The notes under the pieces were generated by a model. That model was not told where the DNA came from. It saw only the letters and a program-made list of their open reading frames with translations, and ran no database searches. The translations under genes and the position numbers were made by a program. From Rhynchopus sp. YZ270_cl-10 (Eukaryota), in contig OZ037833.1 of NCBI GenBank assembly GCA_964035575.1, forward strand, positions 1,922,001-1,986,000: 64,000 nucleotides of DNA, given 5' to 3'. The stretch's first letter is position 1. The number at the start of each line of letters is the position of its first letter. Below are positions 1,552 to 46,789 of the stretch, piece after piece.

Positions 1552-3068
1552 AACCTCAGAAAAAAACGTAACGGAAAGACATTCGCTGAGGGGCCTAAAA
1601 TAAGAGAGAGAGAGAGGAAATGAAACAGAGTATATAGAGATAGCAAAAAGACCTTTTGAACGGCTCAAAAAAATACATCACGTATTATTATTAGTTTTTA
1701 CACAAAAAAAGAAGAAAAATGGGTATTGGGAGATGTACCTAAGCCTCTCTTTTGTACTTAGCCATCAAAAATAAAAAATAATCAACAAAAAAAAACCCTT
1801 TTTGACAACGAAAACACTACGGCGTTGATACGAACAACAAATCTCTGGTTTGGCGAGGTTTCTTTTTGTGTTGTCTCGACCATCGCCTTACCGTAACCAA
1901 GGTCTGTCCCTCAATGTTGGCCGAAGCTGTTTAAAAAAAAATTGACAGCGGAGCTTGCACAAATGGCAACTACACTATTCCAAAAATTCTTCTAAAAAAT
2001 AAAACAATACTTTTACAGTAACTCATCGAAATAGGGAGTTACAAATGTACTTAAAAAAAATAAGGGTGAAGTTGAAAGTGCAATACATGAAGGACGTATT
2101 TCGTCCATTTCCTCGCTTGGTTATCAAACTGAAGTACTTCGTTGGTAGTCACACGAGGGAAGCTTGTATGCAAATAAACAATATTAGAAAGAAAAAAAAA
2201 TGCAGAATAAGGAAGACAGACGAATAATAAAGGGGGGAAAAGACGCTTTTTATCTCACCCATTTTTTTCTAATCTCTTGGAAGCTGGACACTTCGAGTTT
2301 CAAAACATAAAAGGGAAGTTGATAGTGAAAAACAACGCCTTTGGGACGCAGGCACTGACTCTACGGAAAAAGAGTCTTTGAAAACCTCCCTTTTTTGACA
2401 GCGTATTGCACGCGTATGCCAGCTAAAATTCAAAATGGAAAAAAAAAAAAAAAAAAGTTTGTAAGATGAACCTACTGGTAAGCCTCTCGTGCTCAGGCAC
2501 CTTAACCAAATAAAACATAAACTCTGAAGATGAAAGTCCAATCTACGCATCTTGAATAAAGTTAGTATCTCAGAATCTAATGGGGAAGCAGGGATGGGGA
2601 ACATGAAATAAGTTAGAAGAACCAGCACATTTTTTTTAAGATTTAGAACCAGGTGTCTAGAATCACTGCCCCAGAAAGAGGGGAAAAAGGCAAATTGGAA
2701 AGGGAAAAATAAAACACTTTTTTTGAGTAGCAAGAGAGAGAGAGAGAGTAACATATTACGTTCGAACACTCGCTTTTCTGTGTTTAGAGTTTGTAAGGAT
2801 TTTTTTTATTATTTGTTGATGTAAACTCTACAACATTATTAGTTTTGAGCTCCGGATCGCTCTGCGATAGGAAGAATCGTGCGAGGTTTAATCACACTCT
2901 AAGAATATAGAACTGACTTCGCGAGATTCGACCCCCACAGCGATTTGAGAAATCCAGATAACCTCAGAGAGAAAGAAACTCCCCTTGGGGGAAGTTTTAT
3001 TGGTGGAAAGTATCACCATAATTTCACTGAGGAACGGACAGCATAGGAGAAAAGTCTTGCCCAAGATT

Positions 3069-4017
3069 GGGGTGGCATCAAAACAAAAAACGCGGACAAT
3101 GTCCGCGTTTTTGGGGGGGGAGGGGGGGGGTCTGAAATTCCAGAAAACGCGGACATTTTGGGGTTTTTTTTTCCTGGAAATTTTTTTTCTTTGCCGGGGT
3201 TGTACACGATTTTGACCAAAATTTATAAAAACTCGTCCATTTCGGCAAATTGACCCCACCACAGAACCAGCGGATTCAGGAAATGCAAATGCCGGTGTTT
3301 TCGGGCAAAATAAAAAATACAAGATGCCCGCGTTTTTTTTTGCAAAATGTACACGCATGGGGGGCCCTAAAACCCCTGCTACCACGTGTTTCTACAGGCA
3401 AACACTTGGACCCATTGACCTTACACGACGGGTTTTGACCAAAATCATTGTTGGCAAATTGACCCCACCACAGAAAGGACGGATTCCGGAAATGCAAATG
3501 CCGGTGTTTTTGCGCATTTTCATGGTTTCAGCATCAGAGAGAGAAAATCTGCGTTGTGGGATTTACCTTGGCCCCTTTACCTTACACTCATTTTGACCAA
3601 AACCAAGAACTTGGCCATTTCGGCAAATTGACCCCACCACAGCGCGGACAGATTCCGGAAATGCCAATTGCGGCATGTTTTGGGGCTGAAAAATTTTCAC
3701 CAGAAAATTTTTTTCAGCAGCATTTTTTGGCCGAAAATGGGCCCCACGTATTAGTGACCGGGCTCATATTTTCAAAAATTTAAGTGGTCAAAAAATTGTC
3801 CAATTTTCGAGATTGACCCCACCACTTTCTGGACGGATTCCGGAAATGCCAAAAAACTGTGTTTTGGGTCACGAATTTGCACCCTGTCACCCAAAAACCA
3901 GCAAAAAATAGGGGGAAAAAAAACCAAAAATGTCCGCGTTTTGGGGGGGGGAGGGGGGGGTCTGAAATTCCCCAAAAACGCGGACATTGTCCGCGTTTTT
4001 TGTTTTGATGCCACCCC
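3069..4017. mobile_element. Non-autonomous TIR element (~950 bp MITE)
   Basis: ~48-bp TIR GGGGTGGCATCAAAACAAAAAACGCGGACAATGTCCGCGTTTTTGGGG at 3069 with its reverse complement ending at 4017. ATT flanks both ends (3-bp TSD). Confidence 0.8.
3200..3900 (+). repeat. Dispersed repeat family R, built from CGGCAAATTGACCCCACCAC subunits
   Basis: Reverse-complement copies at ~41560-42330 and ~54480-54815. Fragments at 9065-9180, 23240-23350, 23985-24130, 24395-24560, 32500-32615 and 52925-53010. Confidence 0.85.
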
Positions 4018-6350
4018 ATTCTCAAGCTTCCTTTTAAAAAAAAGACACACGTTACACATACCAATTCACACTGCGCGTATGCAAATATACAAAAATACAG
4101 AGCAAAACACAAAACAAATATTGCGAAATCGGTGCCCCCCAATCATTTTCACCTTTTGCCCTCTGAAATAGGCCAGTTACTGCGAGGTATCTTTTCTATC
4201 ATTTACGGGTGGGGTGCTGTGTTGGGAATCCTTCTACCACTTTGCCACAAAAAAAATAAATTGCACACGAAAAGAAAACAAAAATGGTTTAGCAGTACCA
4301 ACGTCTCCGACGTAAATACCCCATTTGTAGACAATAAAACAACTGATTGATTCAAAAAAAAAAAAAAAAAGTTTAGAAAAAATTGGAAAGAAGAAGCCAA
4401 GCCTTGCATGCTTAGTCTGCCAAGAAAGAAAAAAATTCCCTTCAGTGCGGTCGACAGTCTGCTAACTGGGCGCGAACCTAAGACTCACCTCCAAAAGAAA
4501 ATCTTAATCCTCTCGTGAATAGTCACCTCTAAAAAAGATTTGCCTTGCCAAAGGTAATAGTGCAAATTGGGGGAAAACCCCCCGCAAATAAAAGCCATGG
4601 TTGTTGCGCGAAAAGAAGCAGAAATTTTGTGACCACAAAACAAAAAGGGGTGTGTTAGCGAAAAGGGGGAAATGAATGCATTGAGTGATTTGGAGGTGGA
4701 GACGTGGGTAAAAAAAGGTAACAATTTGTGCAAAAATCATTGCTTGAGAATCGTGCGTTTTTCCACATTTAAAGTGAAGTGAAAGAGGTGCAGTTGAAAG
4801 GCTTTAACACTGAATGTCAGTAGGCAAACATATAAAACCAATGCAAAATAATTTGCCCCCTCTTCCCCCTTTTTTGAAAGGGTTTTGGAGAACAGCTTTG
4901 AGCACACAAAGGCGTACCATTTTTTTTTCTCTTTTTTCCTTTCAGCTAGGACCACTTAGCTCGCTTCCATGACAAAAAAACGAGAGGAGAAAACGCTTGC
5001 TGATGGAATAAATACCCCCTTTTTTTTTTGCCCCGACGAATTCGAATGGAGGCTTGAACCACAAAGACAAAAGAAAGAGACAGCGGCGGGTAGCACATCT
5101 CTCGATGCATTCTCGCAACGCTGTTCATTCTTTTTACCCACAGCTCACACACACCCATGATTCGCTAACTGAGGGGAAGAGGGGAGGGTGTAATATTATT
5201 ACCTTGTGTGTGTGCTTTCTGTGACCCAAAAGTTTCTTTTTTTTTTTTTGAATCCTTGAATAATCGATACCGTAGACACTTCGCGTGAAGTTGTGTCAGA
5301 ATATTGTTTTTTCTCGAAAAAAGGAGGACACAACATCGACTAGGAGTTTGACACAACAACAACAAAAAAGCTCCCCCAGATATGGCCGGAGATGGGCTCA
5401 GACTGAGATTAAGCAAAAAAAAAGAAGAAAATTTGAGAAGAGCGAATGAAACTCTTGCCACACATCTGACAAGAAGAATGAACAATTTTTCTTTTTACAG
5501 TATTTCTCGACTCTGCCAGATTCTTTTCTTTCCCCATCTCAACAAAATCAGCGCAAAGTCTCCAATACCAGGCAGGAGGTATCCAACATAGGGTATTTTT
5601 TTTTTTGCCCCCCTCTCCCCTCCACATAAACTTTACTCTGCGACAAACAAAAAAGCATGAATGACGAACGGTCATTGCGCATAACAGTGTTAAAGAAAAA
5701 ACGAACAAGAACTTATTTAATACCACGTGGAGCGTGGTATGAGGGAGAGGAGGGGTTTATTGAACAACACAACTCAGCCTGGAGAGAAAAAGGTCTTGGT
5801 ATAACTAAGAAAACAGCCCAAAAAGGAGTGGGATTCGAATACTGTTGCGGGGAAGAAAAAAAGGGGGAAAAAGTTGGTCAGGATGAACCTAAGCACAATG
5901 TACTCAGTCACCTACCTTAAGAGAAGTGGACAGAAAAAGAAAATGGGAAAGAATGACAGTGTCTCTCATGGACACAGAAACGAAAAAGGCAGATAAAAAA
6001 AAAGGGGGGTTGAAAGTTGGAAGGTGAGAGTGCAAAAAAAAAGATAAAAAAAAACGTCACAAAGACGCAGACACCAGATCTCCGCAGGTTATCGAACCGC
6101 GGAGGTTATAAGAACACTATTTTTTGTATCGACAATCACGTTATACCTACTATAACGATCTGTACTCAAATGTCGGCCGAAGCCTTTGTACTACGGAAGG
6201 TATAGACGCAGATCATCCTCAACCCTTAAGAGTAACGTAATTTTTTTTGTTTATGCAGAAGAAAGGTTGTTTCGATTGCTCAATTACCCTGAGGGGTGAT
6301 TAGCGACCGCATCTGAGGAACTATTTCTCCTTTTAAAGCTACGCTTTGTA

Positions 6351-6462
6351 CAGGGCGTTCGCCCCGGGGCGAAAAATATTTTTTTTCGTTAAAAAAATCT
6401 TTTCCTGAAAAAATGACATTTTATTTCGCCCCAGGGCTTCGCCCCACCGGGGCGAAACCCTG
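6351..6462. mobile_element. Small MITE with TA target duplication
   Basis: TA|CAGGG...CCCTG|TA ends, with internal TTCGCCCC/GGGGCGAAA palindromes. Confidence 0.6.
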
Positions 6463-6467
6463 TATAA

Positions 6468-7282
6468 ATAATATATATTATTATCGTGAATTTATTTTCC
6501 AGTATTTCACGCACAGGTGGAAACAGCCCGAGGGGAAGCATTTTTTCCCGAGGGCGAAGCCCGAGGGGAAAAATGCTTCCCCGAGGGCTGTTTCCACCTG
6601 TAAGTGAAATACTGGTATAAATTCACGAAAATATATTATTTTATCTCCAAATGAGACCATGAATTTCACAACCCGTTTTCACGTACAAAGAGACGAGGGT
6701 GGGGTGGTTCTTTTTATGATGATTTTTGATTCAGTTTTTTGATGTGGAACTCTTAGCGCTGGACAGCGCCTTGAGCCAGAACTGGTGCAGCGGGTTTGTG
6801 GCGCTTACGCGGCTGTACTTCTGATGAAGATGAGGAAGACGATGACGATGAGTCACTTGTGTTCGTGTCGGACTCACCCTCCACAGGTGCCCTCGCACGC
6901 TTTTGAGGTCTCATTTGGGATTTTTTGATGAAAATTTGGGAAAAAAAACGTGTAAATCCGTGGTTTGTGTGATACAGAAAATTAACTCAAAAATGCGTTT
7001 GAGACCCCCAGAATGGCTCAAAATGCCTCTTTTCTGGCTTTAATTGCAAAATTGGGCCTCCAAAGGCCTCCAAAAAAATTTTCGAGAGTTCAGTTCTACG
7101 ATTTTCTGAGCGTGAATTTATTTTTCTGAGCGTGAATTTATTTTTCTGAGCGTGAATTTATTTTTCTGAGCGTGAATTTATTTTTTGAGCGTGAAATACC
7201 GGAAAATAAATTCACGCACCTCCTTCACGATTTTGTGAAGGGGCGTGAAATTCATGGTCTCAAGCGGGGATAAATAAATAAA
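6468..7282. mobile_element. Foldback-like element with nested inverted repeats
   Basis: ~170-bp near-perfect palindrome at 6470-6640. 6485-6512 is inverted at 7189-7216 and 6637-6669 is inverted at ~7246-7282. About five copies of the 20-bp unit TTTTCTGAGCGTGAATTTAT at 7102-7196. Confidence 0.7.
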
Positions 7283-8715: not shown

Positions 8716-9182
8716 ATAAGTAATTGCTATCGGAATAAAACGGGGTGTGCTGTGGATATGGGGAGGCTCAGTAACCATTTGCTCGATGACTGTAGAGGGG
8801 GACTCGGCGTGTTCCAGCTCGTAGTCGTCCACAGGCTCCCACTCATCGTCGTTGATCACACCAGGCGCATCAGCACTCATCAAAGCGCCAGGATGCTACG
8901 GTGGTTTCGAAAATTGGGTGCGGGGAGTTTTCCACAGCACACCCTGTGTTTTTTTCTTCTTCTTAGCAATTCATTGTTTTTTGTTGTTTTGCACACACCT
9001 TCCTTCAACCTCTGTAATCAGTTGTTTGCTTTTGAAAACCCGAAATAACATATTTCAAGGGAACAAATTAAAAAGGGTCCTTATTTGCATTTTTGGGATC
9101 CGCCCGTGCAGTGGGGTCGATGTTGAAAATTAGACAATTTTTTGACCACTTAAATTTGGAAAATATAAGCCCGGTCACTACG
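8716..9182. repeat. Dispersed repeat, second copy at ~22696-23350
   Basis: Shared blocks AAGTAATTGCTATCGGAA, CTCGGCGTGTTCCAGCTCGTAGT, GATCACACCAGGCGCATCAGCAC and GGGTCCTTATTTGCATTTTTGGG occur in the same order in both copies. Confidence 0.8.
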
Positions 9183-11510
9183 GTTGAAGGAAGGTTGTGG
9201 GAAAGTAAACAGTACTCTGATCGAACCAAGAACCAGAAAACTTTGGGGGGTGGGTGGTGGGGTTGTTGGGATGAATGTAAGCCTCTCCCTAGCTTAAGTC
9301 ACCATACATACTTTTAAAAAAATGTAATCAGCAGGTTTCGTTTTCAAATATTTTTTTTTTCGTTAAAACGTTTCAAAAAAGGGTGTTTGTAGGGGAGAGG
9401 GAGAGGGTATTTTTGAGGGAACGAGAGTAGCGTGGGTGCATTAGAAAAGCCAACGTTCTCGAGGGTTGGGATCATACCGTAGGGAAAAAGAAAACTTGGA
9501 AGATGAATGTGCCGCTTGTGCACACACATCTTTGGAAGGAAATATTATTATTTTTTTTTTGTTTGCTTCGAATGAATGGGCCTCACAGGCACTGTCCATC
9601 TACAATAAATCAATTTTCATATACTTTCTATTCAAAGAAAAGAAAGCAAAATAAATAAATATAATAGTGGAGCACACTCTAGGGTGGCTACACTAATACA
9701 ACCAAGTTTTCAAATAAAAAAAATATACACGAACGGAGCTGGGTAAAAAGCTCACTTCTATTTGTGGGTATCGTTAAAACGGGAAAATTTCATAATTCCC
9801 ATAAAAATCTGAAGCCTCCCTATCGAAGGGGGTTTAAAAAAAAGCTGATAACAAAATAACGGGTGAAAGGGGGTGATATAGTGACACTGAGAGAAAACAC
9901 ACAAAAAAAATAAGCCTTTTTTTTTCTGAGGGAGGATGGCATGTATTTTGATAAACCGGCTGTTCCTCCCCCCGACTAGGACGTTTTACAGACCGCACAC
10001 CTTACCCTACGGTGTAGCAGACATCCTGTAACAGGAAACTCTGGCCTGACAACTTTTTTTTTCTCGCCTTTCTTAGGCACTTTTGTTTGGTTCTTTCATT
10101 CTTTTTCCCATTCTCGAAGAAACAGCTAGGGTAATTTTTTTTTTTGAATGATGTAAAATGGAATTGTGGAGCCACCTCCTCTGACCATGTGGTCGAACGA
10201 CTGGAAAAAACGTACTAAGGTCTGTCCGTGTACACCTACATGATTTTTCAGGAGTCATTTGTTGACATCAATACTGGCCCCATTCCCCAAGGAAGGATGC
10301 AGGTTCTGCTAAAATGGGACATAAAACAAATGTATTTTTTTGCCGAAGCATTTTTTTTTTTTTTTTTTGAACCATAAAAAAATAACCTCACAAAACACAT
10401 ACGATTTTTTGTACACACCGTTTTTTTCTGTTTTCGTTCTCGTCATTTTCATCAACATATTTTTTTCCCCCCTCCCTTGGCCAGATTGAAAACACAGCAA
10501 GCTCAGGATGCAAACGTCTGTTTTAGTCAGATATCTCTGCAAGACTGTGCCTTTTATCTGTATTTTCTTTTACCATTTTTTTCCAGTGTACTATGTTCTT
10601 ATTTTTCAGGCCAAAAGAAGGGGGAAAAAATCAGGAAAAAATTTAACTTTATCTATACAGGATTTTGTTTTGATTTGCGTTTTTTGAAAACTTGGTTGTA
10701 TTAGTGTAGACACCCGAGGATGAACTCCACTATACGCGTTTTTTTTTTCTCTCGACAAACGCAACCCTCAGTCGAAGACAGAGGATGCATACGCAACATA
10801 GCCAAAAAAAGGGGAGAATAAAGATGTAAAAAAAAGGGATGTTTCTTTGAAATCATCTCAAAAAGCGACTTTAAAAAAAAAATAAAAAAAAATCAAAACT
10901 GCCCACAAAAGAGAAAGGTTTGGTAAGATAAACCTTAGATTCATGCACTTTCAGTTCACAGAATTGAAAGTATTTGAGAGGATCAACCTTATACAAGCCT
11001 TGTACACCTTCTCCCAAAAGATAAACGAGAAAACTTTGCAGCCATGCCATTCGCAAATCACAAATATTTTCATTTCAGGCGAGAACGGGGGAAAACATTT
11101 TTTTTCCTGCAACCCTCTTTTCTCCTAAGCCCACTATTATCGCACAAAAAAATCATTTAAAAAAGAGAAAAGTTTTGGTTAAGATGGACCTAAGCCAGCA
11201 TCATGCTGAAGTCACCTTTAAAAAAAAATTATATAAACGGGGGACCTCATTTTGCATGAAATTTGGTGGAAATTAGTGGTATTTCACCCCCCCTTCAAAC
11301 TCCACTAAACCCCACCAAAAATTTCAGGCAAAATCAGGGGAAGGAGAGATAAGAGAAATCTTCCAAAAAAAAATATCATTCTTTAAAACAAATTGAGTAC
11401 TCAGAGAAACATAAACCCATCAAGGATTTTTTTTTTCCCCCTTGACTCTCTTTTCGGTGTAAAATCCTCCCCTCCCCAAATAGAAATAAAAAAAACGCGA
11501 GAAAAAAAAA

Positions 11511-15925: not shown

Positions 15926-16190
15926 ATTAACAAAGAGGAGGGGGAGGAGGGGGACATCTGCCAAATGAGTGATTTTTTTTTTGAAAAAATATAAAAAGCA
16001 GAGTTGAAAATACAAAGGCCCTCTCGTGAAGAAGTGTACCTTTGGTATGACCTGGCTGTACCGGAGGGGGGTGGACACCCCAACCATGCATTTCGTTTAC
16101 ATAAATAAGGTTCCCTTTTTTTGTCTACACACAATCTAAAGTTTCTAGTGGGGTGGGGAGGGACAAAATAGCCCTAAAAAAAAAATCCCT

Positions 16191-28282: not shown

Positions 28283-30851
28283 TATGATAATTACCCCGTT
28301 TTTTTTTTGTTGATAAAACCTGGATACTCTTGTTGCTATGCAAACACCAATCCTTCAACACTAACATTTTTTTCTCTCTCTTCCCACACCCGAAGTACGG
28401 TATCGTGTAGATGGGAAATCACATCCATTTTTTACTGTCATTTCTTATGTTTGAAAAGAGAAGTTGAAAAGTGCAAAACTCGGACACCTGCATGCAGGCA
28501 TTAGATAGTAAAAAGATTGGTAAGATGAACCTAAGCCTCTCGTACTTAAGTCAGGACCAAAAAAAAAAAACCCCCCTTGAAGAAAAAAAAATAGGATATT
28601 TGCCAACATGCAATTTCCCACTTTTCCCGAAACAAAAAAAACATTTGGGAAAAAATAATAATAAATTGGAGCAAGGTGCTACATAGCGGGATGGAGGAGT
28701 GTGTGTGGCGGAGGGAGGGTTGAGCGAGGGGAGGCGAGAACACGCGCAAAAAGGAAGAAAAAGAGAAGGGAGAGGGGAAAACAAAAGAAACCCCACACAC
28801 CACGTCCTAGTTACCACCCATGACTAGTCATGTGATAAGGTGTATGACTAGTTACATGACAAGACCCTCCCATACCCATATGACATTTCTCATGTCTCAA
28901 AGTGTAATTACATGTGTACAAAAAAAATCAAAACAAAAGTGAAGTTGATAGCGCCAACGCCTCTGGGACGCAGGCACTGACACTCAAACAAAAAAAAATA
29001 GTGGTTGATGCAGGCACCTCACCGACTGAGCCACTTACGATGCCAGTCATCCGGATGAAAGCACAAAAAAAGAAGAAATTTTGAAAGATGAGCCCTATTG
29101 TGCACGCTTTTAAACAAATATGAGATGAACCGTTAGTCACCTTGAAAAAATGGAAGCGAGGTGGAATGAGGTTGTCTCAAACACAGTTAATGCTCAAGTG
29201 GACTGGTGCCAATAGCATAAATGTACACCTTCAGGATCTTTTTCATCCCCACCCCCTTTCTTTTGCTTTTGGAAACACCGCAGAGTTGATGCAAACGCCG
29301 TTGGACGCAGCTACCTTTTTTTTTGTTCTTGTTTGTTTGTTTTCGCTTTTTTGGGGGGTTCCGTTTTCTAAGTTTTTGTAGACATTTAAGTCCAAGAGAA
29401 AGGGTATGTTACTTTGTTTGAGATTACGACGCATCCACGATCTCAGAACTAAGAAAAGGTTTTTTTTGGCCTCAAAGAGGTTTCCTCTTCACGGCCAGGT
29501 AGTCAGTGGGAGCGTAATTGCAGTAATAAAAAATATCACCACAGAATATTGTGTGTCGACAATCGCCTAAGGACCCGCTTGGGGGGGGTTTTTTTTAAAG
29601 TTATTTATTTGTAGTTTTTGCTTTTGTTCGCAGGTTTCGGCCGCTAATTCCTCTGACCCGCTAAACAAAAATTATTTTCATCATATGCAATCAATAAATT
29701 GATAGTAACAAAAATAAATAACTTGGTGCTCCGGGAGGGGTCGATATTGACAGGTCGTTGACCGACTTCCAAAAGCACCATAAACCTCGACCAGGGCCCG
29801 ATCTTGAGAGGGCAGGCGAAAAAGGAGTTGCCCATACACCTCACAAACACAGCCGAGAGAACAGCCAACAGCCGTAAGGATGACTCCCGCAGCAGGCGTG
29901 AAACATGTACAGATGCAATAAAGGAGGAAAAAAAACCCCGGGGGAAAAAAAAATCCCTGCTTTGTAATAGCCTAATAACCTGACAAATAACGAATAATAA
30001 CCCAGACACATTGCATACCTTTTAACAATAGGAACACAAAAGACTGGGGACTCCTATCGCATATGGGGAAACACTAGGGGAAATGGGGAATGCGGGTAAA
30101 TACACAAAGGAGCCTTTTTGTGGGATGGAAAGACAGAAAGAAAGAAAGAGATGTAAAAGGGGGGGAGAAACACGAGGTTTTATTTTGTAAATACACTTCT
30201 TTCACTGATTTTATCCCTTCTTTTTTTTTGGTCAAAAAAACGGAGAGTCAGGTAGTGCCTAGTTACCACCTGGTAATCACCCAGAAAGGGATTTTTTTTT
30301 TCTTCCCGCTATCAAAACAAAATTTCTAAGGTTCAGATGGGGGGGAGAAGAAAAAATGGGCCAATGAGAATACACTACTAAGTTGTCTGGGTGTTCCTCC
30401 TGGTCCACAAAAATCCAGGAAACATCCATTATTTCATATACTATCTATTCTACTGAATAGAAGGTATAATAGGGTGCACTAAATGTACCCAAACTTTTTA
30501 CTTTATGCGGATTGTTTGTTTCTGACATATAAAAAAAAAATGTACAGGTGATAGGTCATGAAGGACGATTTCGTTTGTTGCATTGAAAGTCACCCCACCT
30601 GGGGTGCGTTCTTCTCCTCATTTATCTCCCTCTGTCTATCGCTAAGATACGACAGGTAGAGATAACACATTTTTCAAAACTCTTTTCTTTTCTTGAAAAA
30701 AAAGAAAAGAAAATTTACCATTCCTAGGGAACGGTCCTTCGAAGCCCAATAAAATGGAGTCGGTGGGCTAAAGAGGAAGTTGCCTTCTAAACATCCACAC
30801 AACAACTGAAAAAGGGGGAGGCATTCACCTTCATTGAAATAACATTACCCA

Positions 30852-31003: not shown

Positions 31004-32201
31004 ACTACATAAAACACCTCTGTTGATAACGATCAGCCACGCAACTTGGTCAGCGCAGTCATCACATTTTTTTTTGTTTTGACAATCACCCAAAAGGGGG
31101 CAGGTTGTACTCCAACCGCACACTGGAAGGTTAGGATACTTAACTTAGCATGGCAACTATTTCCCCAAAGACGGGGCTAAAAAAAGGTGAGCTGTCTTTT
31201 TTTCTTTTTCTCAAGTTGTGTGTTGTTGCTTTGGTTGGTTCGCACATCGCTGTGCGAATACTTTTAGACTGTTCTTCGGGAAGGGGGAAGGCGGAAATTT
31301 GGAAAGAAAAATGGTTCACATGAAAGCACAAATAGGAGGGCATTTATTCTTGGAAAAAAAATGGTTCATTTTGTCGCTCAAACTAAACCCCACCCTAAAA
31401 ACGGTGCCTGCATTTTATGTACACAGGCGAGAATAGGGGGATCACAAAATAAAACAAAACAAAATGGACTTAGTTTTGTTATCCTTGCTGTTGGGGCAGT
31501 ATAGCGACCGTCACACTGGGTGGGTGATGTGCCGCCCAATTCAACTATGCAAGAACAAAACAAAGAGAAAAGTTTATAAGATGATCCTAAGCCTCTCGTG
31601 CTTAGTCACCTTACCCTAAACAAAAAGAGGGAAAGTTGATAGCGCAAAACCCCCTCTGGGGCGCAGGCACTAACACTTCCATTTGTCAAACCTCATCCCG
31701 GAAAATTTTGAGGTAAGACAACCCCCCTTTTTTTTTTGTGATGACTTAGTCACATAGTGGAGCTCATCCTTGGGTTACACTAATACAACTAAGTTTTCAA
31801 AAAAAAAAAACGTTACCAAGAAAGAGATGTGATCACAGCTCTTGCCGAACCTTTTAAAAAGGCAAAGCAATTCAGCCACTTTCCCCCTCTACACAATACA
31901 AAAGCGAACAAAACATGGTGCCATAAAAAAAAGCAAAAGAGTCTTCCTATGTTCTAGGGAACACCACGCAGAAATGACATCCCTTTGCTTTGATCGGTTG
32001 TGTTGTTCGAGAGGGGGGGTTTGTGAAAAGTTGAAAATACACATAAATGGCCTGTTTGTATGTGTTCTCATGGAACCACCCTATGAGAAAGAAAGAGTTG
32101 AAAAGTGCACACAGCCGCCTCGCCAGACAACTTAGACACATGAAGAAAAGAAAGAAATTGTTTTCATATACTAACTATTCTACTGAATAGATGGTATAAT
32201 A

Positions 32202-33689
32202 TGTACCGTTTTTTCCGGGTGTCGGTGGGCTGTAATTGGGTGTAATTGGGCTGTAACTGGGCGTAATTGGGTGAAATTGGGCAAAAATGCCGTTTTTTGC
32301 CGTTTTTTGCACTTTTGACTTGCTTTTCGGTCCCCACACCCCCAATTTTTCCCACTTATGTGCTGTTTCCCTACAAATCCATATAAAATCGAAAACGGCA
32401 ATGAAAAAGATGCCTTGGTAAGTGGTCACAGGTTGCACCTGCGCGGTTCCAATGCGAGAATGGAGGACACATGTACCGTGTCCCCCAATTGACCTGCAAG
32501 AAATGGCGTAAACCCGCTGCTTTTAAACACCGGCATTTGCATTTTCGGAATCCGTCCGGCCAGTGGTGGGGTCAATTTGACGAAATGGACAAGTTTTCGT
32601 TTTTGGTCAATTTCCTCACAGTACACAGTACACAGTACACAGTACACAGTACACAGTACACAGTACACAGTACACAGTACACAGTACACAGTACACAGTA
32701 CACAGTACACAGTACACAGTACACAGTACACAGTACACAGTACACAGTACACAGTACACAGTACACAGTACACAGTACACAGTACACAGTACACAGTACA
32801 CAGTACACAGTACACAGTACACAGTACACAGTACACAGTACACAGTACACAGTACACAGTACACAGTACACAGTACACAGTACACAGTACACAGTACACA
32901 GTACACAGTACACAGTACACAGTACACAGTACACAGTACACAGTACACAGTACACAGTACACAAACCACCTGATTGTCAACTTCCGAAAACCATCACCTG
33001 TACCGATGCACAAACTCCACGGTCAAAAATAGTTTATTTTTGGAGTGAACGCCAGTGGTCTGAAGAGTGATCTGACCATATTCTCCAGGTATAACAAATG
33101 CTCAAACAATGCATTGTCGAAGGAATTTTGTACTTTTGACCACCACAGATTACATGTGTTTTTACCGGTTTTTTTATGTGATGTGTGCTGGGAAGCATGC
33201 CACCAGTGTTACCATTTTACAAGGTAAAAATGACTATGTACGTACGTATGTGAGGAAGAAGGCTGAGTGGGCGTGTAGTGCCACAAAATATATGGGAGGC
33301 ATGCAGTCCCCTGTCCGGTTACCAAAACCCGCCCGTCATAGGCGTTCCCACTTTTCGGTGCCACACCCGAAAAGCGGGTGTCATCACACCCTCTAGTTGA
33401 GTATCCCGTTTGACCCGCTCAGAGAGAGCTGGACCCCACCGTGTGAGCAAGCAAAACAGGTCACCCCCTGGTAAGCCCCCCTCAAAAACACCTGAGTTGT
33501 ACTAGTGGTGTGACTGGGTGTAATTGGTTGTAATTGGGTGTAATTGGGTGTAATTGGGCTGTAATTGGGCGTAATTGGGCAAAATTGGGCTGTACTTGGG
33601 TATAATTGGGTATAATTGGGCATAATTGACCCGAAGTGGGTCCAGATGGGCTCTGTTGGGTCCGGTTGGGTGGGTGAAAAAACGGTACA
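32202..33689. mobile_element. ~1.49-kb TIR insertion with demonstrable target-site duplication
   Basis: TIR TGTACCGTTTTTTC / GAAAAAACGGTACA with TAATA on both sides. The uninterrupted empty-site sequence is at 30433-30500. Subterminal TAATTGGGYG 10-mers. Confidence 0.85.
32617..32963. repeat. (CACAGTA)n 7-bp satellite, ~49 copies
   Basis: Perfect tandem array. Confidence 0.98.
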
Positions 33690-35019
33690 TAATAGGGTGC
33701 ATTAAATGTACCCAAACTTTTTTTTTTTAGAAAGAAAGAAGTTTTGTTGATAGAATTCTAAGCCGCTTAGCCGCCTCTAACATCAAAAGAAAAGCGAAGT
33801 TGATTAGTGCAAACGCCTCTTGGGACACGGCACTGAAAAAATAGAAAGAAAAAAAGTTTGATATAATCCCAAGCCGCCTCTAACAGCTATCAAAGTTGAC
33901 TTGAAATACAAAGCCCTCTCGTGAACAGTGTACCCTGGTATGACCTGGCATGTACCGGAGGGGGGTGGACCCCCATGCAATCCTACATCCATTTCGTGGT
34001 TTACATCTGATATCAAAACGCGAAGTTGATAGTGCAAAACGCCTCTTGGGGGAACTGAAAAAGAAAGAAAAAAAGGGGTTTTTTTATCAGATGAACCTAA
34101 ACCGCTGTGTTTAGTCATGGAAAAAAAATAAATATATGCCTCTCATACACCGCATATCTCTACAAAACAAAAGAAAAAGTTGGTAAAAGGTGGGCTCAGT
34201 GCGCGATTGCGATTGTTGGCTAAAAAAACTCCCCCTCCCCCTTCTCCCACAACCACTACACACCCCCTTTATTCATCCCTTTTTTCCAATCTAAAGCGCT
34301 ACGCTACACGAAGCCCCCCTATTTTTTTATTTCTTTTTATTCTGGCACTAATCTTCTGAATAGGGGAGGGAAGTGGGGGGGGCTTTTAAAGGTAAGTTGA
34401 GAACCCCTTTCATTGACGTTAAACACATAGTTATGGTGAATCTCCTTGGTAACCACCGTGCTGTCAAGACACATTGGCGGGTCAGGAAAATGAACCATTC
34501 CAGGAGTGCTCTGCCGTGAAGGTAAAATGGTTAAGCGTGTGACCAACGTATGGGCAGATGGTCGAATCGGATGCCTCGAAAAGCCTTATTGCAAGAAGAG
34601 GAGCAACGTCGACGAAGGTGACGCGTACAGAACCTTGCGAACAAAGCATGACGAATTGCATACCAAAAAAGGAAAAGAAAAGAAAAAAGAAAAGAAAGAA
34701 ACTTGAGAGATAATGTGTCCAATACAATTCACATAACAGACGTCCTTTAAAGCAAATCTGAAGTTTGATAAAAGAAAGATTCCAAAAAAAAAATAAACAA
34801 AATCCCACGAAGGGAGAACACAATATTCCCCCTTCATCCCCTTTCCCCTACCCGACCCGTATATAAACACCAAAAAAACATAGTCGAAAGTGTCGCCACC
34901 TGGTGGTCAAAGAGGACACAAAAAAAAAAAATCGCGATGAGTTGTTGCTTTTTGTGCGTAGATATCAAAATATTGTCAAATGACAAAAATGTGTCTTGCT
35001 TTTTGCTAACAGAACAAAA

Positions 35020-35823
35020 TTACTCTAATACTTCGGTCAAGGTGACGCGGAAGAGAAGGGTAGAGTTCTCGGGAACGCCTGGGAGGGCCTTCTCGCCGTA
35101 GCCGTGGTGTGGGGCGCAGGAGATGATCGCGGTTTCGCCAACAGCCATCTGTGTAGGGGTTTTTGTTGTAGTTTCGACAAAGTTTCGACAATCACCTCTC
35201 CGAGGACGGGTTCTGTACCAAAGTCGCCTGAAGGCTAATGAATTTCAAAGGTAAAAATGCAGTTTGTTCTGAAATCACTAGAATTTGATGCAAATCACCA
35301 CCTCCAAATACACGATCCATACCTCAGGAAGCCCTTTGTTCATCCCCTTCACGAAGCCCTTTCCAGTCTCGCATTCCTGGGGGGTGTTTATGATGATTTT
35401 TGTTATGTCTTGGAGGATGCTGTTCAGTCTAGGGTTGCCTTAATCTTCATACCTTCCCTTTACCTTCCCCAAAGCATGCGTACGGAGGGTCTGCAGTGTA
35501 GCCCTTGAAATCAATGCGGATTTTTTTCCCTTTCCCGACAGGGATAGGCGGAGCTGTGCCTGGTTCGAGAATCTGTTGTAAATTTTTTTCCGTAAAATAC
35601 TCGCTTTTGTCTTGAAATGAAGTACAAAAAAGAAGGTTTATAAGATGAACCTAAGCCTCTCTCTTTGTGCTGAGTCATATAAAATAAAGAATTGAGGGGG
35701 GGAAAGGAAGAGATATACCTTCTTGTGCCACCCTCGCTCGTTCAGCTCGCTGCGCTCAATAGGAATTTCCAGAGGAGGTTTTTCTTCCTTCGCTGCAGTC
35801 GTGGTACTGCTCCCGCAACCCAT
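35020..35823 (-). CDS. FKBP: FKBP-type PPIase-like protein with N-terminal MGCGSS acylation motif; 4 exons
   Basis: Exons 35823-35719, 35572-35453, 35376-35323 and 35148-35020 splice to MGCGSS...GWHKKILEPGT...IRIDFKGY...GKGFVKGMNKGLPEMAVGETAIISCAPHHGYGEKALPGVPENSTLLFRVTLTEVLE*. Confidence 0.88.
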
Positions 35824-37114: not shown

Positions 37115-37146
<32 letters not shown>

Positions 37147-38075: not shown

Positions 38076-38786
38076 TGTGTGGTGTCTTTCTGGGGTTTTT
38101 GGGGTAAATGGATGTAACAAAAAATTGACTTGAAATACAACAGCCCTTTCGTGAACAGTGTACCTTTGGTGCATGACCGGGTGTACCGAGGGGGGGTGGA
38201 CACCCAACCATGCAGTTCTACCATTTCGTGGTTTACATCTGATATGATAAAAAAAGGGAGAGTGTGGTTTTGTTTTTTGCCCTGCTACTCACCTTGAATA
38301 CTCGAAGATCTTTATGAACACCGAGTCTGGGGGGAGGGGGGAAATGATCTTCACCACCGAAAAAAAAAACCCTGTTGAAAAGGATAATGTGCTCGTCAGA
38401 GCACGCTCTCTCTCTCTCTCTCTCTCTCTTCTTTTTCCCCTTTTCCTTGGCAAAAGCGGTGTGCCATAGACATACACACACACAATACAAAAAAAAAAAA
38501 AATCCCCAGACAAGACACCTTTATTTAAATTGTTTGTCACCCCTAATATCTGCAGTATTTTCCATTTTTTTCGTTGCCCCATGAGGCTAGACGTAACCCT
38601 CCAGACCTGAAACAAAAAGCTTTTTGGCCACCCCCTTGTGAGCCAATCTCCACCGAAGCAAGTTGTCGTTTTTTGTTTAAAAAGGGGGCATGGGGGTTTG
38701 TGTGGGGGGATGGGGGGTTAAAGTAACTTATCATATCGTATCGACACTTTGAAAAAAAATAAAGTAAAAAGAAAAACGGAGGGGGT

Positions 38787-39473
38787 CTACTTCGACTGGG
38801 GGTGGTTGGCGACGTACTCAACGGCGTTCTCAACGGTGAGGAGCTTTTCCGCCTGTTGTGTTTTTAAGTTAAATTATTTGATTTTTTTTCCACAAAAGTA
38901 GTCAGCTTTTACAAAATTGGACGGAGATAGTGAAAATCTTACTGAACAATACAACACAGTACGGGTTTTCGCATACCTCGTTGTCAGGGATGTCCAGAAG
39001 GAACTCCTGCTCGAATGCCATCACAACCTCAACCTGGTCCAGGGAGTCAAGACCCAGGTCGTTGATGAAGTGTGCGGTGGGTGTCACCTTGTCTGCCGGC
39101 ACCTTCTGGAAGTTCTTGACCACATCGATGATACGCTTCTCGGTGTCTGCGCGGTCAAGGAAGTAAGATCTGTTGAGGGAAAGAACGGATGCAAAACATA
39201 AAAGTGCAAATGCCTCACCGTTCATCGACGCAGGTACTGATTCTCCGTGGGAAATAAAGACGAAGTTGAACTTAAACCGGAGTGATTAGTTACCTTTAAA
39301 ATGCATGGAGAAAAGAAACGGAAGCTGGAAGAAAAAGAAAGGTATCCTATTGAACCTAAGCCTCTTTGTTTCAGTCACAAAAATAATAACAACAATAAAA
39401 CCCCACAATACCTTCCAAGGTGTGCGCGCGCCAGAGGCGCAACTCTGCTTGCTGCCACGAATCCACGGAACAT
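38787..39473 (-). CDS. ACP: Mitochondrial acyl carrier protein; 3 exons
   Basis: DLGLDSLDQVEVVMAFEQEF phosphopantetheine motif; presequence MFRGFVAASRVAPLARAHLG. Exons 39473-39412, 39169-38977 and 38852-38787. Confidence 0.95.
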
Positions 39474-41343: not shown

Positions 41344-42526
41344 GTTTTCTAATATGGTTCTGAGTGAATGATGTGAACAGGATGGGGAGTCGGGTGGTAT
41401 TATAGCAGGGGATGTGTAGGATGTTTTGAAGAGAAAAAAGAGGGAAAAAGGGGGGAGATTTTGATATTTTTTGAATATCACGACAGGAGTGGGGGTGGGA
41501 GTGGGAGGAGGAGCAGTGGTCGCGCTAATTATGGGAAAAAATGGGGGAAAAATGGATTTCGGGTACGGAAAAACGTTCCTTGAAAAGGTTAGCTGGGGAG
41601 GCCCGGAAACCCCGTTTTGTGGCATTTCCGGGCCAATCCCGGCTTGTGGTGGGGTATATACGGAAAAATGGACAAAATTTTAGTGACTTAAATTTTCGCA
41701 AAATATGAACCCATACCCGTAAACAAGGGTCATTTTCAGGAAAATTCGGAAAATTCCGAGATTTGGAAGCAATTTTTCTCCTGAAAATCAGTGGGTTTTC
41801 AGCCCCAAAACATACCGCGATTGGAATTTCCGGAATCCGTCCGCGCTGTGGTGGGGTCACTTTGCCGAAATGGCCAATTTTTTGGTTTTGGTCAAAATCC
41901 ATGTGGGTAAAGAGGGCCAATGTAAATCCCACAACCAGATTTTCTCTCCCTGATCCTGACGTCTTGCAACATGAAAATGCGCGAAAACACCGGCATTTGC
42001 ATTTCCGGAATTCGTCCGTTCTGTGGTGGGGTCAATTTGCCGAAATGGACAAGTTCTTGGTTTTGGTCAAAACCCGTCAGTGTAAGGTAAAGGGGGCAAG
42101 TGTTTGCCTGTAGAAACTGGAAGGGAACAGGCAGCGCCGCAGGCGCACGGTAACCAACTTTTTTTTTTTTTTTCCTTTTCTTTTTTCTCCTCTTTCTTTT
42201 GACTTTCCGAGCCAATTGCGTTCCACGGCGGGGTCACATGTATATGCAAGTCCACTATGTGGTGGTCTTACTCAACAATATTAGAACTTCTGGTTTCTTA
42301 ATGAAATCCCCGTACTGCAAAAAAAAAACGTTCCTACCAAAACCCCCAAAAATCCCGGGATGAGGGATGGACTTTAGCGCGAGCTCTGAGGAGGAGGGGG
42401 GGGGGTTTTTTTTTTGTGTGAAATCTAATTTATTTGAGATCTAATACGACAAAAAAAAAAAGAATCTATAATTTTGATGTTTTGGTACATCATTTTAACA
42501 ATGGTTTTTTTTGGTAATATTTATTT

Positions 42527-43327: not shown

Positions 43328-43404
43328 TGTGTAAAGGGGAGGGGCTGTGTGGGGGGGAGGGGTGGTGTGGGTGTGGGGGTTTGGGTGAAGTGAAGTGTGG
43401 GTTG

Positions 43405-43474
43405 TCAGCATTGTCGTTAACTTCGTTATAGACTTCAGATTGCGGTGTTGACAATTATTATGTGGATTCATCAT
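43405..43474 (-). ncRNA. Box C/D snoRNA-like, type A copy 1
   Basis: ATGATGA (C box), internal CTGA (D') and terminal CTGA (D box); 70 nt. Confidence 0.75.
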
Positions 43475-43637
43475 TTTGGGGGGAGGGAAAGAAGAATAGA
43501 TTCATATACTTTCAGTTCACAGAATTGAAAGTATTTGAGAGGGTCAACACAGGCACCCTTTCTTCTGAAAGAAGAGAAATGAGTGTTGGTTGATAATTTG
43601 ATTTATGTGATTATTTTGTGGCTGGGGGAGAGGTTTG

Positions 43638-43707
43638 TCAGCATTGTCGTTAACTTCGTTATGGACTTCAGATTGCGGTGTTGACAATTATTATGTGGAT
43701 TCATCAT
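43638..43707 (-). ncRNA. Box C/D snoRNA-like, type A copy 2
   Basis: Near-identical to copy 1; similarity stops close to the C and D boxes. Confidence 0.75.
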
Positions 43708-43843
43708 TTTTTTCGGGGGGGGGGGTGTCGTTGTGATACACGACGGGACCCAGTAGTGAAAAATAAAAATGACAAGTGAAAGGTGACTAGTGAACCACTT
43801 GTCATGACAAGTGATTGACTTGTCATTTCACTTATAAAATGAC

Positions 43844-43997
43844 GCTTGTCGCTTGTCGCTTGTCGCTTGTCGCTTGTCGCTTGTCGCTTGTCGCTTGTCG
43901 CTTGTCGCTTGTCGCTTGTCGCTTGTCGCTTGTCGCTTGTCGCTTGTCGCTTGTCGCTTGTCGCTTGTCGCTTGTCGCTTGTCGCTTGTCGCTTGTC
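43844..43997. repeat. (GCTTGTC)n 7-bp satellite, ~22 copies
   Basis: Perfect tandem array. Confidence 0.97.
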
Positions 43998-44079
43998 ACT
44001 GGGTACTGTCGTGTAAGGAGGAAGGGAAGAAAACTCGAAGAGAATAATAGAATAGATGAGTGTGGTGGAAGAGAGGTTG

Positions 44080-44149
44080 TCAGCATTGTCGTTAACTTCG
44101 TTATGGACTTCAGATTGCGGTGTTGACAATTGGTATGTGGATTCATCAT
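44080..44149 (-). ncRNA. Box C/D snoRNA-like, type A copy 3
   Basis: C, D' and D boxes intact. Confidence 0.75.
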
Positions 44150-44209
44150 TAAGTGAAACAACGCTCTGAACAGTCGTCGAGAAGCAGAGTTGTGTCTTTG
44201 TACGTGGTA

Positions 44210-44290
44210 TCAGCATTGTCTTTGACTTCGTAAGCAGAAAAGCTTCAGATTGCGGTGTTGACAATAATTTTGGAATTGGATTTTCATCAT
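44210..44290 (-). ncRNA. Box C/D snoRNA-like, type B copy 1
   Basis: ATGATGA...TTGTCAACACCGCAATCTGA...GACAATGCTGA; diverged from type A outside the box-adjacent blocks. Confidence 0.72.
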
Positions 44291-44425
44291 TACCGAAAAT
44301 AACAGTGTGCTAAGGATTTTTTCAGCCTCAAAATTTGAACAAAAATAGGGCAAAAAATAAGTGCAAACGCCGCGGGGGAGGAGAAAGAAGAAAAAATGGT
44401 AGGTAGGGGATACTTCCCTTAGTGT

Positions 44426-44495
44426 TCAGCATTGTCGTTAACTTCGTTATGGACTTCAGATTGCGGTGTTGACAATTATTATGTGGATTCATCAT
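44426..44495 (-). ncRNA. Box C/D snoRNA-like, type A copy 4
   Basis: C, D' and D boxes intact. Confidence 0.75.
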
Positions 44496-44661
44496 AGGTG
44501 GCTATATGGAACAAAATACACTGCAAAAAGGAAATATTCGGTGCAATGAAACGAACCGATTACGAATGTCTCAACACATCGTGCAAGGGAACATTGAGTG
44601 AAATTAAGTGAAACAACAACTCTAATAAGTGGTCGAGAAGCAGAGTTGTGCTTTGTTGGCA

Positions 44662-44743
44662 TCAGCATTGTCTTTTGACTTCGTTAGCAGAAAAGCTTCA
44701 GATTGCGGTGTTGACAATAATTTTGAAATTGGAATGTCGTCAT
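44662..44743 (-). ncRNA. Box C/D snoRNA-like, type B copy 2
   Basis: C box variant ATGACGA; D' and D CTGA intact. Confidence 0.68.
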
Positions 44744-45297
44744 ATACTTAGCGATCGAAGACGCGATCTTCGGTGGGAATTTTTTCCCCCATCGATTTTG
44801 ACCAAAAGAAAGTTGCGTATATTTAAATATTGCCAATACTGAATACGTGAAGGGGCTACGAATGTCGGGGGGGGAATGACTTTTTTTTTGTGATTTTTTT
44901 GTGAAAGTGGCTGAATAGACCACTCTCTGATTTTGTCACGGCAAAAAAAATAGCCGTCACAACTGGGGATTGGGTTTGGGGGGTTACTCACAGAAAGGAG
45001 CATAACAAAACGAAAAGGAGTCTTCACCCACCGTCTCCTTCCCTTTGCCTTTGCATCCTTCCTCGTTGTTGATCTCAAGTTTTTTTATTTCATTGCTTCT
45101 TGAAAATATATTTGGAACATATTTTTTTAAAACCCCGCCCCACCTCTTTTCCTCACCCCACCCACCCCTGTCCCCCCTCCCCAACAGAACAAATGATGAA
45201 AGGGCCGTAAACGAGAAAAATACAAAATGGGGTTGGTTTTCTTCTTCTTCTTCTTCCCTCACGGGGGTGAGGGTGGTGAAATTTAAAGCCTCAGCGC

Positions 45298-46364
45298 TTA
45301 CTTCAGGCCAGTCTTCTCTGCGGCGGCCTTCTTGGCGGCCTCCTTGCGTGCAACACGTGCAAGACGGATACCCACGAACTGTGTGTTGTAGTTTTGTGGC
45401 ATGTGTTAAAAGTTACTTGTGTCTCTTGTCTGTAAGTTTCGTGGCACTGAAGCATTCATCAACTTCTGCAAAAAAAATGGCACAGATCCACTGCTAATCC
45501 ATGTGCGCACATGACTAGGATCAACCAGGTTTCTTGTCACTCTAATCGGGGGATTGCTCCCCTGAGATCAGTGATCAAAGAGCCTAATGACGGTTGATAT
45601 ATTCCGGCTTCTGTGAAGAAGCCTTTAAAATCACCCCATTCGGAGACGTTTCTCCATTTTTTGTGTTGATTTTTTTCCCCCAACAAAGACATTACCTTCT
45701 CGTCACGGCTCTTGGCACGGAGGTAGTTGTAGATGAGACGGCTCTTCTCGTCCTTGGAGACGTCACGGGGGGCCTCGTGGGAGTCGGCCTTGACAAGGGG
45801 GAGCACCTGGGTGTGGGTGTTCTGGGTCACAGCCTTGAGCTGCTCGGAGGAGGCCTCGGCGACGGCTCCCTTGGTGGCCTTGACACCTCCCTTGAGGGGG
45901 AAGAGGATGAGCTTGCTCAGGTACTCCTTCAGGCGGAGGGTGTTCTTGGCGAGCCCCTCGTCGGAGTGGTTGCGGCGACGGTGGTCCACGGCAACTCCAA
46001 TGGTGCGTGCGTACCTCGAGGTCACGCCACAGGCCTTCAGCTCCTCAAGGGTGAATCTGTGGGTGCAGTGTGTAGAGCGAAGATAGCCACATTGTGAAAC
46101 AAAAAGTAAATAAAAAATGACATACCCCTTTCCTGCGCGGGACTTCATGTTGTACCTCTGGGTGCATGACTGCACAACGGGGCGAAGGGCTCCTCCCGAC
46201 GGGCGGGGGAAGATGGCCTTAGCCTTCTGCTGACGCCTCACACGGCGGGCCTTCTTCTGGTGTGCCTGCTGGAAGAAGGTCTTGATGTGTCCCTTCTGGG
46301 AGGACTCGGGGTTCCAGTGCTTGCGGAAGTGGTTACGGGGGATGGCCTGGTTGTGCTTCGGCAT
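45298..46364 (-). CDS. RPL13: 60S ribosomal protein eL13; 3 exons
   Basis: Motifs HFRKHW, PRP..LRPVV, RYNMKSRAGKGFTLEELK, VDHRRRN and LKEYLSKLILFP. Exons 46364-46126, 46056-45696 and 45378-45298. Confidence 0.97.
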
Positions 46365-46789
46365 TTTAAAAAAGGGGTTGTGTGGGTGTGTTGAGAAGAG
46401 AAGCTGGACGTTGATAGGGTTTTTTGAGGAAGTAGCAAAGAGGAGGGGTATTGGTATTTGAAAAGGGAGGAGGTGCGATATATTTTGAGAGGACCGTATG
46501 GCCGTCCGCGAAATGAAGAAAAATCAGGTTTAATCTAAATGAGAAATGGAACTGACGGTAGGGTCAGTTATCTTTGTTAATATTATTCAGTGAGAAAAAG
46601 AGAAGTTGAAAGTGCAAAACACCTCACCGTACATCGAATGCATGGGGGGTGGTTCTCCGCGGGGGTTTGCAAACCCCAGAGAGCATTTTTCAACATAAAA
46701 AAAAAAGGATTGATAAGATGCTAAGTCTTGCTTAGTCACCTCAAAAAAAGATCTAAGGAGCCTCAAAACCCCGAATTTTTTTTGGCATT

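Follow-up and report, generated by a model that had tools for sequence, protein, structure and literature searches.

A stretch of 64,000 nucleotides from Rhynchopus sp. YZ270_cl-10 (contig OZ037833.1, positions 1,922,001 to 1,986,000; hereafter, the window) contains 19 copies of an imperfect hairpin of about 45 nt, which we call M1, and every copy lies in the same orientation as the genes. M1 is a real and abundant repeat family with an orientation lock in this window, and the lock is its most striking oddity. If all mechanisms of mobility are considered together, M1 very likely originated as a mobile element. The specific explanation that we favor, at a little under an even chance, is that M1 is the decaying core of a tiny modular non-autonomous element that was copied via RNA. 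That M1 functions as RNA is possible but rather doubtful.

In diplonemids, polycistronic transcription and trans-splicing occur alongside numerous cis introns and long spacers, and there is no settled account of how the precursors are processed. M1 is one of two things: a mobile element of unusually small size whose orientation lock still needs explaining, or a handle on precursor processing. It could mark the direction of transcription should the lock extend across the whole genome. As a fossil repeat and nothing more, M1 would be a lineage-level curiosity.

Copies of M1 and their orientation

A preliminary description, made by reading the window, listed 18 copies of M1. We built a covariance model from 19 hand-picked copies (those 18 and one more) and used it to search both strands. 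The model found 19 copies at 27.5-58.8 bits (E ≤ 4e-4), and all of them are on the minus strand, which carries all of the convincing genes in the window. The next match has just 18 bits. Each of the 18 listed copies was recovered no more than about 15 nt from its originally stated place, and the additional copy is at 39249-39302. With a relaxed threshold (E ≤ 2), there were 27 matches, of which 26 were on the minus strand, and the single plus-strand match is at the level of noise (14.9 bits, E = 0.82). We also searched with an nhmmer profile that was seeded with 11 copies from the preliminary set, and compared the results to 20 locally shuffled windows: 16 copies scored above the best shuffled-window score (8.3 bits), again all on the minus strand. 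Similarly, a 16-mer from the 3' arm has 9 matches with at most 2 mismatches, versus 0.04 expected. The copies, and three weaker matches, are as follows (bits are from the covariance model, which found every copy that is not described as below significance):

1716-1774, minus strand: M1 copy, 48.5 bits
2449-2509, minus strand: M1 copy whose 3' arm has a 6-nt insertion, 54.6 bits
4374-4428, minus strand: M1 copy, 44.2 bits
5866-5920, minus strand: M1 copy that forms G-U pairs on the sense strand, 45.1 bits
8056-8110, minus strand: M1 copy, 44.7 bits
9254-9311, minus strand: M1 copy, 29.8 bits
11167-11224, minus strand: M1 copy, 37.7 bits
18893-18947, minus strand: M1 copy, 35.5 bits
19703-19756, minus strand: M1 copy, 55.9 bits
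20402-20453, minus strand: M1 copy in NEK intron 5 (20354-20515)
23762-23813, minus strand: M1 copy with a degenerate 3' arm, 37.4 bits
28508-28566, minus strand: M1 copy, 51.8 bits
29108-29149, minus strand: M1 copy with the apex and inner 3' arm deleted, 27.5 bits
31564-31618, minus strand: M1 copy nearest to the consensus (unit about 31566-31613; folding z −3.35), used as bait for contig recruitment
34074-34127, minus strand: M1 copy with a single G-C to A-U compensatory change
35628-35687, minus strand: M1 copy in FKBP intron 1 (35573-35718)
39249-39302, minus strand: M1 copy absent from the preliminary list, second copy in ACP intron 1, 38.1 bits
39333-39387, minus strand: M1 copy in ACP intron 1 (39170-39411)
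46701-46748, minus strand: M1 copy between a DUF4211 gene and eL13, 46.6 bits
33735-33790, minus strand: possible M1 variant, below significance (18 bits, E = 0.12)
4493-4535, minus strand: possible M1 variant with an intact apex, below significance (16.1 bits, E = 0.39)
10911-10940, minus strand: M1 remnant (3' arm only) from the profile search, below significance

The sense fraction is 19/19, with a lower 95% bound of 0.85, but this is from a single window with a single direction of genes, so transcription and replication cannot be distinguished as the reference for the orientation. Control repeats in the window lie both ways (for example, 3388-3864 versus 41607-42117, or 9664-9717 versus 10680-10733), and there are T-runs on both strands (273 on the sense strand versus 230 A-runs), so the orientation lock of M1 needs explaining. 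The control repeats include a larger modular family that is present in both orientations and is apparently younger mobile DNA (3200-3870, 9065-9180, 23250-24560, 32525-32610, 41520-42320, 52900-53010, and 54470-54815).

None of the 19 copies overlaps coding sequence, even though 31% of bases 1-48000 are coding (P = 0.001). There is one copy per 1.75 kb of non-coding DNA, and the density follows the non-coding length, with M1-free stretches at 24000-28400 and 48000-55300. Our own gene map has 12 gene spacers, and M1 is present in 4 of them, including the three longest. Its absence from the other 8 spacers implies that M1 is not a required signal with one copy per gene. The intronic copies in NEK intron 5, FKBP intron 1, and ACP intron 1 were borne out with predicted gene models, and with the additional copy, four copies lie within three short introns.

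M1 is a hairpin of 41-48 nt that is flanked by T-runs. On the sense strand, it has an outer helix of 7-9 bp, a 2-nt bulge, a 6-bp inner helix, a bulged A, a C-GAGA-G apex, an AYAAAC tail, and then a pyrimidine tract. In the best copy, the outer helix has 9 bp, one of them G-U, and is followed by the 2-nt bulge, the 6-bp inner helix, the bulged A, and a GAGA loop closed by a C-G pair; its folding energy is −16.4 kcal/mol for the sense strand (z = −3.35) and −9.5 for the antisense. The sense-strand flanks are 48% T upstream and 58% T, 15% A, and 7% G downstream. The divergence of the copies is 0.16, with 48 transitions versus 52 transversions.

The preliminary description stated that the loop varies freely while the stem is kept. 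In fact, the apex has a consensus (ACGAGAG), and AGAGG is retained in 11 of 19 copies, so the apex is better described as a consensus with slippage and deletions than as a free loop. As for the stem, the inner helix is indeed kept (86% paired), but the outer helix is weaker (68% paired). We considered and rejected two other accounts of the core. It is not a mini-intron: there is AG|GT at both ends of the 23-nt core, but GT is kept in about 13 of 19 copies and AG in about 14 of 18, which is no better than for adjacent positions. And CpG decay of the apex is too mild to matter, with a CpG observed/expected ratio of 0.71-0.81 in spacers versus 0.88 in coding sequence.

Genome-wide abundance and companion modules

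M1 is a genome-wide family, because one copy recruits thousands of public contigs. We aligned contigs to a bait (31545-31724) at 80% likeness. The bait recruited 5,492 contig records from run X1, which may be the source of the assembly, and 4,247 from run X3, and almost all of them were placed on 31557-31616. Runs X6 and X7 had no placements on the bait, which is not evidence that M1 is absent. The summed depth has a peak of 3.6 million, versus about 100 for single-copy pieces. The ratio hints at 10^4 copies or more, but depth is not copy number and is unfit to stand in for it; it is safe to say that there are thousands of copies.

The recruited contigs also show where the repeat ends. The summed depth drops from 374,000 to 5,700 between bins 31611-31616 and 31617-31622. 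On both sides, the loose ends of the contigs are A-runs on the plus strand, which are T-runs on the sense strand, and the flanks in the window agree. On the 5' side, the three best-supported loose-end places account for 558 contigs in X1. The bait's own flanks also determine where alignments stop, so the ends of M1 are approximate. In all 12 of the contig joints listed, the alignment steps back by 33-67 nt on the same strand, which corresponds to rare head-to-tail tandem copies. The only substitution listed among the recruited contigs converts a U-A pair to U-G on the sense strand.

In the window, M1 is accompanied by two other modules. M2 is a hairpin of about 45 nt that terminates in (U/A)UCAACUU. 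Eight full copies score above noise; all are sense, and each is one of the 9 seeds that we picked by eye. Every one of the 8 has an M1 copy within 300 nt, and 7 are downstream of it (p ~ 5e-5, an optimistic value given this choice of seeds). The spacing after M1 is variable (57-287 nt), and one M2 precedes M1. M3 is about 120 nt; its 3' part resembles M2 and it carries the apex word of M1. There are three full copies and one partial copy, all sense, and one of these is in a predicted intron. Because the modules do not keep to one order, they look more like a mosaic than like a single fixed element.

2310-2358, minus strand: M2 hairpin
28455-28502, minus strand: M2 hairpin
28935-28980, minus strand: M2 hairpin (z −2.4)
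31630-31672, minus strand: M2 hairpin, the sole case upstream of M1
33790-33836, minus strand: M2 hairpin
34016-34054, minus strand: M2 hairpin
39195-39240, minus strand: M2 hairpin in ACP intron 1
46597-46636, minus strand: M2 hairpin
33890-34014, minus strand: M3 module, in an M1-M2-M3 cluster
38119-38246, minus strand: M3 module in a predicted intron
15991-16101, minus strand: M3 module, intergenic
25741-25776, minus strand: M3, 3' part only

We ruled out an HDV-like fold for M3 by inspecting it against the consensus for that fold. A further small hairpin with a B-box-like word is at 6075-6112, 2105-2145, and 825-868 (minus strand). Twice it is just upstream of a 3' remnant of M2, and one contig joint has a similar word between M1 and M2 elsewhere.

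Origin of the family and a possible role in RNA

The preliminary description claimed covariation of the stem and had also proposed it as a test. Using a structure-blind alignment of the 19 copies (A1, which has low power), we found that 291 of 500 shuffles reach the observed covariation score and 178 match its percent paired; across all measures, the range is 178-319 of 500. Covariation is thus no stronger than expected by chance. An alignment that was fitted to the structure and that includes 8 sub-threshold matches (A2) gives strong covariation (0 of 500 shuffles), which we rejected as circular. RNAalifold did not identify a consensus structure in the gappy alignments of M1 or M2. The two examples that the preliminary description gave, a G-C to A-U change in the copy near 34089 and G-U pairs in the copy near 5881, are both present. 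Overall, across 12 core pairs (217 cells, after re-registering three copies with an extra U), 45 cells depart from the Watson-Crick consensus: 27 are pair-breaking (6 A-C and 21 other mismatches), 16 are G-U, and just 2 are new Watson-Crick pairs.

Our favored explanation is a decaying retroposon. A promoterless master would be passively transcribed within polycistronic pre-mRNA, and a LINE-type enzyme would reverse-transcribe its RNA in trans, with the hairpin as the recognition structure. T-rich spacers and introns would receive the new copies, in many cases with M2 or M3 modules alongside. Either antisense copies would be purged or insertion would be coupled to transcription, which is the weakest step. 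The majority of copies would by now evolve by drift, and any constraint on the inner helix would be mild at most. Diplonemid genomes are described as polycistronic, with many dispersed repeats, and as encoding LINE, SLACS, R2, and jockey enzymes (PMC10161547).

The preliminary description had suggested either an RNA-level element or a degenerate retroposon that is analogous to the SIDERs of Leishmania. The retroposon branch fits best because of the abundance across the genome, the sharp ends, the 16% divergence that is mostly pair-breaking, the density that tracks non-coding length, and the sense orientation; the RNA-level branch is weakly supported. There are precedents for short elements in Euglenozoa. 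SIRE of Trypanosoma cruzi, which is reportedly linked to polypyrimidine tracts and splice acceptors, is a short interspersed non-autonomous element like M1. SIRE is longer than M1, at about 435 bp, and is made from the ends of VIPER (PMC6681497). SIDER1 and SIDER2 resemble M1 in being dispersed, degenerate, and non-coding, in the polycistronic spacers of a euglenozoan, and in being sense-biased (82% of SIDER2 in 3'UTRs, as described in PMC11520807). But SIDER2 has a median length of 529 bp, a 79-nt 5' signature, an A-rich tail, and 1,448 copies in L. infantum, while M1 is about ten times shorter (41-48 nt, which is less than the signature), is flanked by U, is a single hairpin, is also found in introns, is far denser, and has no antisense copies among 19. 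Because M1 lacks the A-rich tail, we do not classify M1 as a SIDER.

Several observations weigh against a retroposon. The Leishmania SIDERs are described as about 4:1 sense overall (PMC2689281), and 19/19 is above this ratio (P = 0.014 at 80%). Nor does the supply of T-runs explain why all of the copies are sense (P = 9e-6). The sense strand has no A-rich 3' tail, as shown by the composition of the downstream flanks and by the loose ends; there would be an A-rich tail only if the RNA of the element were the opposite strand. As the preliminary description reported, there is no detectable target-site duplication at the copies in the window: the flanks of the same copy share 5.8 nt, versus 5.9 nt for flanks of different copies (shared-word test, p = 0.59), although low-complexity flanks and 16% decay could mask a duplication. 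T-runs on both sides without a duplication would fit a rolling-circle element too. No autonomous partner was found in the window: of 55 candidate frames, the search covered all but 5 simple-repeat frames, and none of the 50 has a Pfam family. Finally, G-U pairs outnumber A-C pairs by 16:6 (p = 0.052 with 12 core pairs; without re-registering, and with 14 pairs, the ratio is 21:12 and p = 0.16), conservation is uneven among positions (p = 0.018), and the stems are 13% diverged versus 22% for the apex (p = 0.024). These last three signals lean towards selection on RNA, but they can also arise from detection bias, slippage in the GA-rich apex, or strand-biased mutation. Quasi-palindromes may acquire compensating changes at the DNA level through template switching, and transcription-linked mutation favors G-U on the sense strand, so the G-U excess and the conservation of the stem do not prove a function as RNA. 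In other words, the structure of M1 is weakly selected at most.

Two other types of mobile element were rejected. A cut-and-paste MITE does not fit because the hairpin is asymmetric and bulged, there is no sign of a duplication, and M1 has one orientation while the control repeats lie both ways. As for a tRNA-derived SINE, ARAGORN found 0 genes, and the words in M1 that resemble the A and B boxes are just ~21 nt apart.

Instead of drifting, most copies might have been retained because the sense hairpin, with its tail and U-tract, is recognized by a protein or RNP. M1 would then be a domesticated pre-mRNA signal that marks introns and spacers for cutting or decay, or that masks U-rich tracts that would otherwise be spliced-leader acceptors. 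We consider this unlikely, but it is the leading rival. It would account for why M1 (19/19), M2 (8/8), and M3 (4/4) are all sense while the control repeats lie both ways, as selection would have little cause to remove just one orientation of a near-palindrome if nothing reads its asymmetric parts. The invariant positions in the inner helix (T22, A24, T97, T104, and C110), the G-U excess, and the four copies in three short introns point the same way, and SIDER2 is described as a decay signal (PMC11520807). Yet covariation is not above shuffles, pairing is broken in 27 of 217 cells, the sense strand folds better in just 11 of 19 copies (p = 0.14), and M1 is absent from 8 of 12 spacers. Also, the first AG downstream is YAG for 10 of 19 copies versus 56 of 135 control tracts (p = 0.46). 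A branch point plus acceptor was rejected as well: the yUnAy found after the stem in 12 of 19 copies belongs to the consensus, and there is no enrichment of YAG.

More broadly, M1, M2, and M3 could together be a domesticated mosaic code. Thousands of sense-locked micro-hairpins would then either flag introns and spacers as targets for cutting or degradation, or keep trans-splicing away from U-rich tracts. Such a code is somewhat less likely than a role for M1 by itself. If true, it would let an intron-rich, repeat-rich polycistronic genome distinguish cis introns from outrons. The predicted cis introns of the window end with A/C-rich rather than U-rich sequence, so a U-tract inside an intron could need masking. 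These introns agree with the CA-rich motifs and atypical tracts that are described for diplonemid introns (PMC12621601).

M1 might instead have spread as single-stranded DNA, as a Helentron/HINE-like or REP-like hairpin that is moved by a HUH enzyme to T-run targets. Exposure of only one strand (the non-template or the lagging strand) would explain the orientation lock. The T-runs at both ends and the lack of a target duplication are as described for HINEs (PMC4067079), and a short imperfect palindrome in mosaics with linkers resembles REP/BIME (PMC3333891). Also, when 5 chosen copies were folded as DNA, the sense strand gave the better fold in all 5, and D. papillatum has Helitron-like ORFs (PMC10161547). 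Nevertheless, we think this is more unlikely than either kind of domesticated signal. Helentron HINEs (DINE-1) share with M1 the T-rich targets, the Ts at both ends, the lack of target modification, and the very high copy number, but they have subterminal inverted repeats and a separate 3' palindrome, and the features described do not include a transcription lock (PMC4067079). M1 is one hairpin, far shorter than any HINE, and its spacing to M2 is variable. The flanks of M1 fit the Helentron type but its body does not. REPs and BIMEs are, like M1, short imperfect palindromes with high copy number in extragenic mosaics with variable linkers (PMC3333891). Unlike M1, they are prokaryotic, they are described as alternating in orientation within BIMEs (PMC2817692), and they have a Y1 transposase partner, while no partner ORF was found for M1 in the window. 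In contrast to BIMEs, all of the modules are co-oriented, as are the 12 listed joints.

Could M1 be a SINE derived from rRNA, namely from the LSU helix with the sarcin-ricin loop? The apex of M1 aligns to this loop in all three Rfam-confirmed eukaryotic LSU pieces that we compared (13-16 nt with 2-3 differences), and about 3,600 dispersed pieces of 28S rRNA are described in D. papillatum (PMC10161547), which like M1 are thousands of short dispersed copies in a diplonemid. This is very unlikely. The matches are not significant (1.5-2.4 bits, E = 0.67-1.3), and they are to LSU pieces that are not from the host and that came from 120 loci selected for that motif, from which we picked by flanks before confirming with Rfam. 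The covariance model finds nothing at those places. The arms of the helix also pair differently: where the loop-E motif has its GAA strand, M1 has a Watson-Crick arm. IMG/VR contigs L094, L136, and L174 carry eukaryotic LSU rRNA pieces at their ends.

The preliminary description had also offered a small-RNA class. Such RNAs would be H/ACA-like single-hairpin guides or short Argonaute-loaded hairpins that are excised from introns and spacers. This is the most improbable of the explanations. The sense orientation, the intronic copies, and the clustering with other hairpins are consistent with it, and an expanded Piwi/Argonaute set is described in D. papillatum (PMC10161547). But a search of Rfam with the window and with 33700-34200 found nothing meaningful for M1 at E ≤ 1, there is no consistent box (ACA follows the stem in just 5 of 19 copies and AUA in 4), there is no guide pocket, and there are thousands of drifting copies. 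A self-cleaving ribozyme was rejected, with no Rfam ribozyme family at E ≤ 1 and no hammerhead core by inspection against the consensus.

We also searched for M1 in other sequences. A strict pattern had 0 matches in metagenome contigs. A relaxed pattern had 63 matches in metagenome contigs and 6 in viral contigs; none of these has the 5' arm along with the flanks, and none exceeds 18.2 bits with the covariance model. There were 0 matches in GTDB genomes. M1 does not seem to have been described before, as far as the literature that we searched; Additional file 1 of PMC10161547 and the supplements of PMC12621601 were outside this search and may describe it.

Genes and other features of the window

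The frame for eL13 (45696-46364) is 65% identical to eL13 of Diplonema papillatum; its identity is 61% with an entry that bears the label Rhum and 47-49% with proteins of trypanosomes, so the host is a diplonemid. D. papillatum is described as having unidirectional gene arrays and trans-splicing (PMC10161547). For the predicted gene models of NEK, FKBP, ACP, and eL13, GT-AG splicing yields open frames (although in our check, the second intron boundary of eL13 was mis-anchored). NEK is a kinase, as confirmed by Pfam. The names FKBP and ACP are from the preliminary description and are consistent with our reading of the sequence. The very long gene or genes at 55329-64000 (minus strand) encode multi-PAS-domain protein, with at least 10 PAS stretches. 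The only protein-like ORF on the plus strand (814-1551) is head to head with a gene that ends near 760; there is no M1 inside it, and we found neither a homologue nor a Pfam family for it.

The M1-free region at 48000-55300 is GC-richer, with a nested 33/51-nt tandem array at 51400-52160 and longer frames without a Pfam family. Downstream of eL13, at 43400-44750 (minus strand), is a tandem cluster of five C/D-box snoRNA-like units of two variants. Each has a C box and two CUGA words, one internal and the other terminal, 66-77 nt further; the best Rfam match is snR71 (E = 0.12, below threshold). A 52-nt hairpin, which is a candidate single-hairpin guide RNA, is present at 10936-10987 and 43497-43548 (minus strand), with 94% identity. 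One copy is within the snoRNA-like cluster (z = −4.7) and the other is between M1 remnants. There are also perfect 7-/8-nt microsatellites and a 21-nt repeat that forms an inverted pair about 1.7 kb apart (32617-32960, 43840-43995, 28000-28270, and 26320-26480), as well as a self-complementary stretch of 180 nt that is MITE-like (6468-6644).

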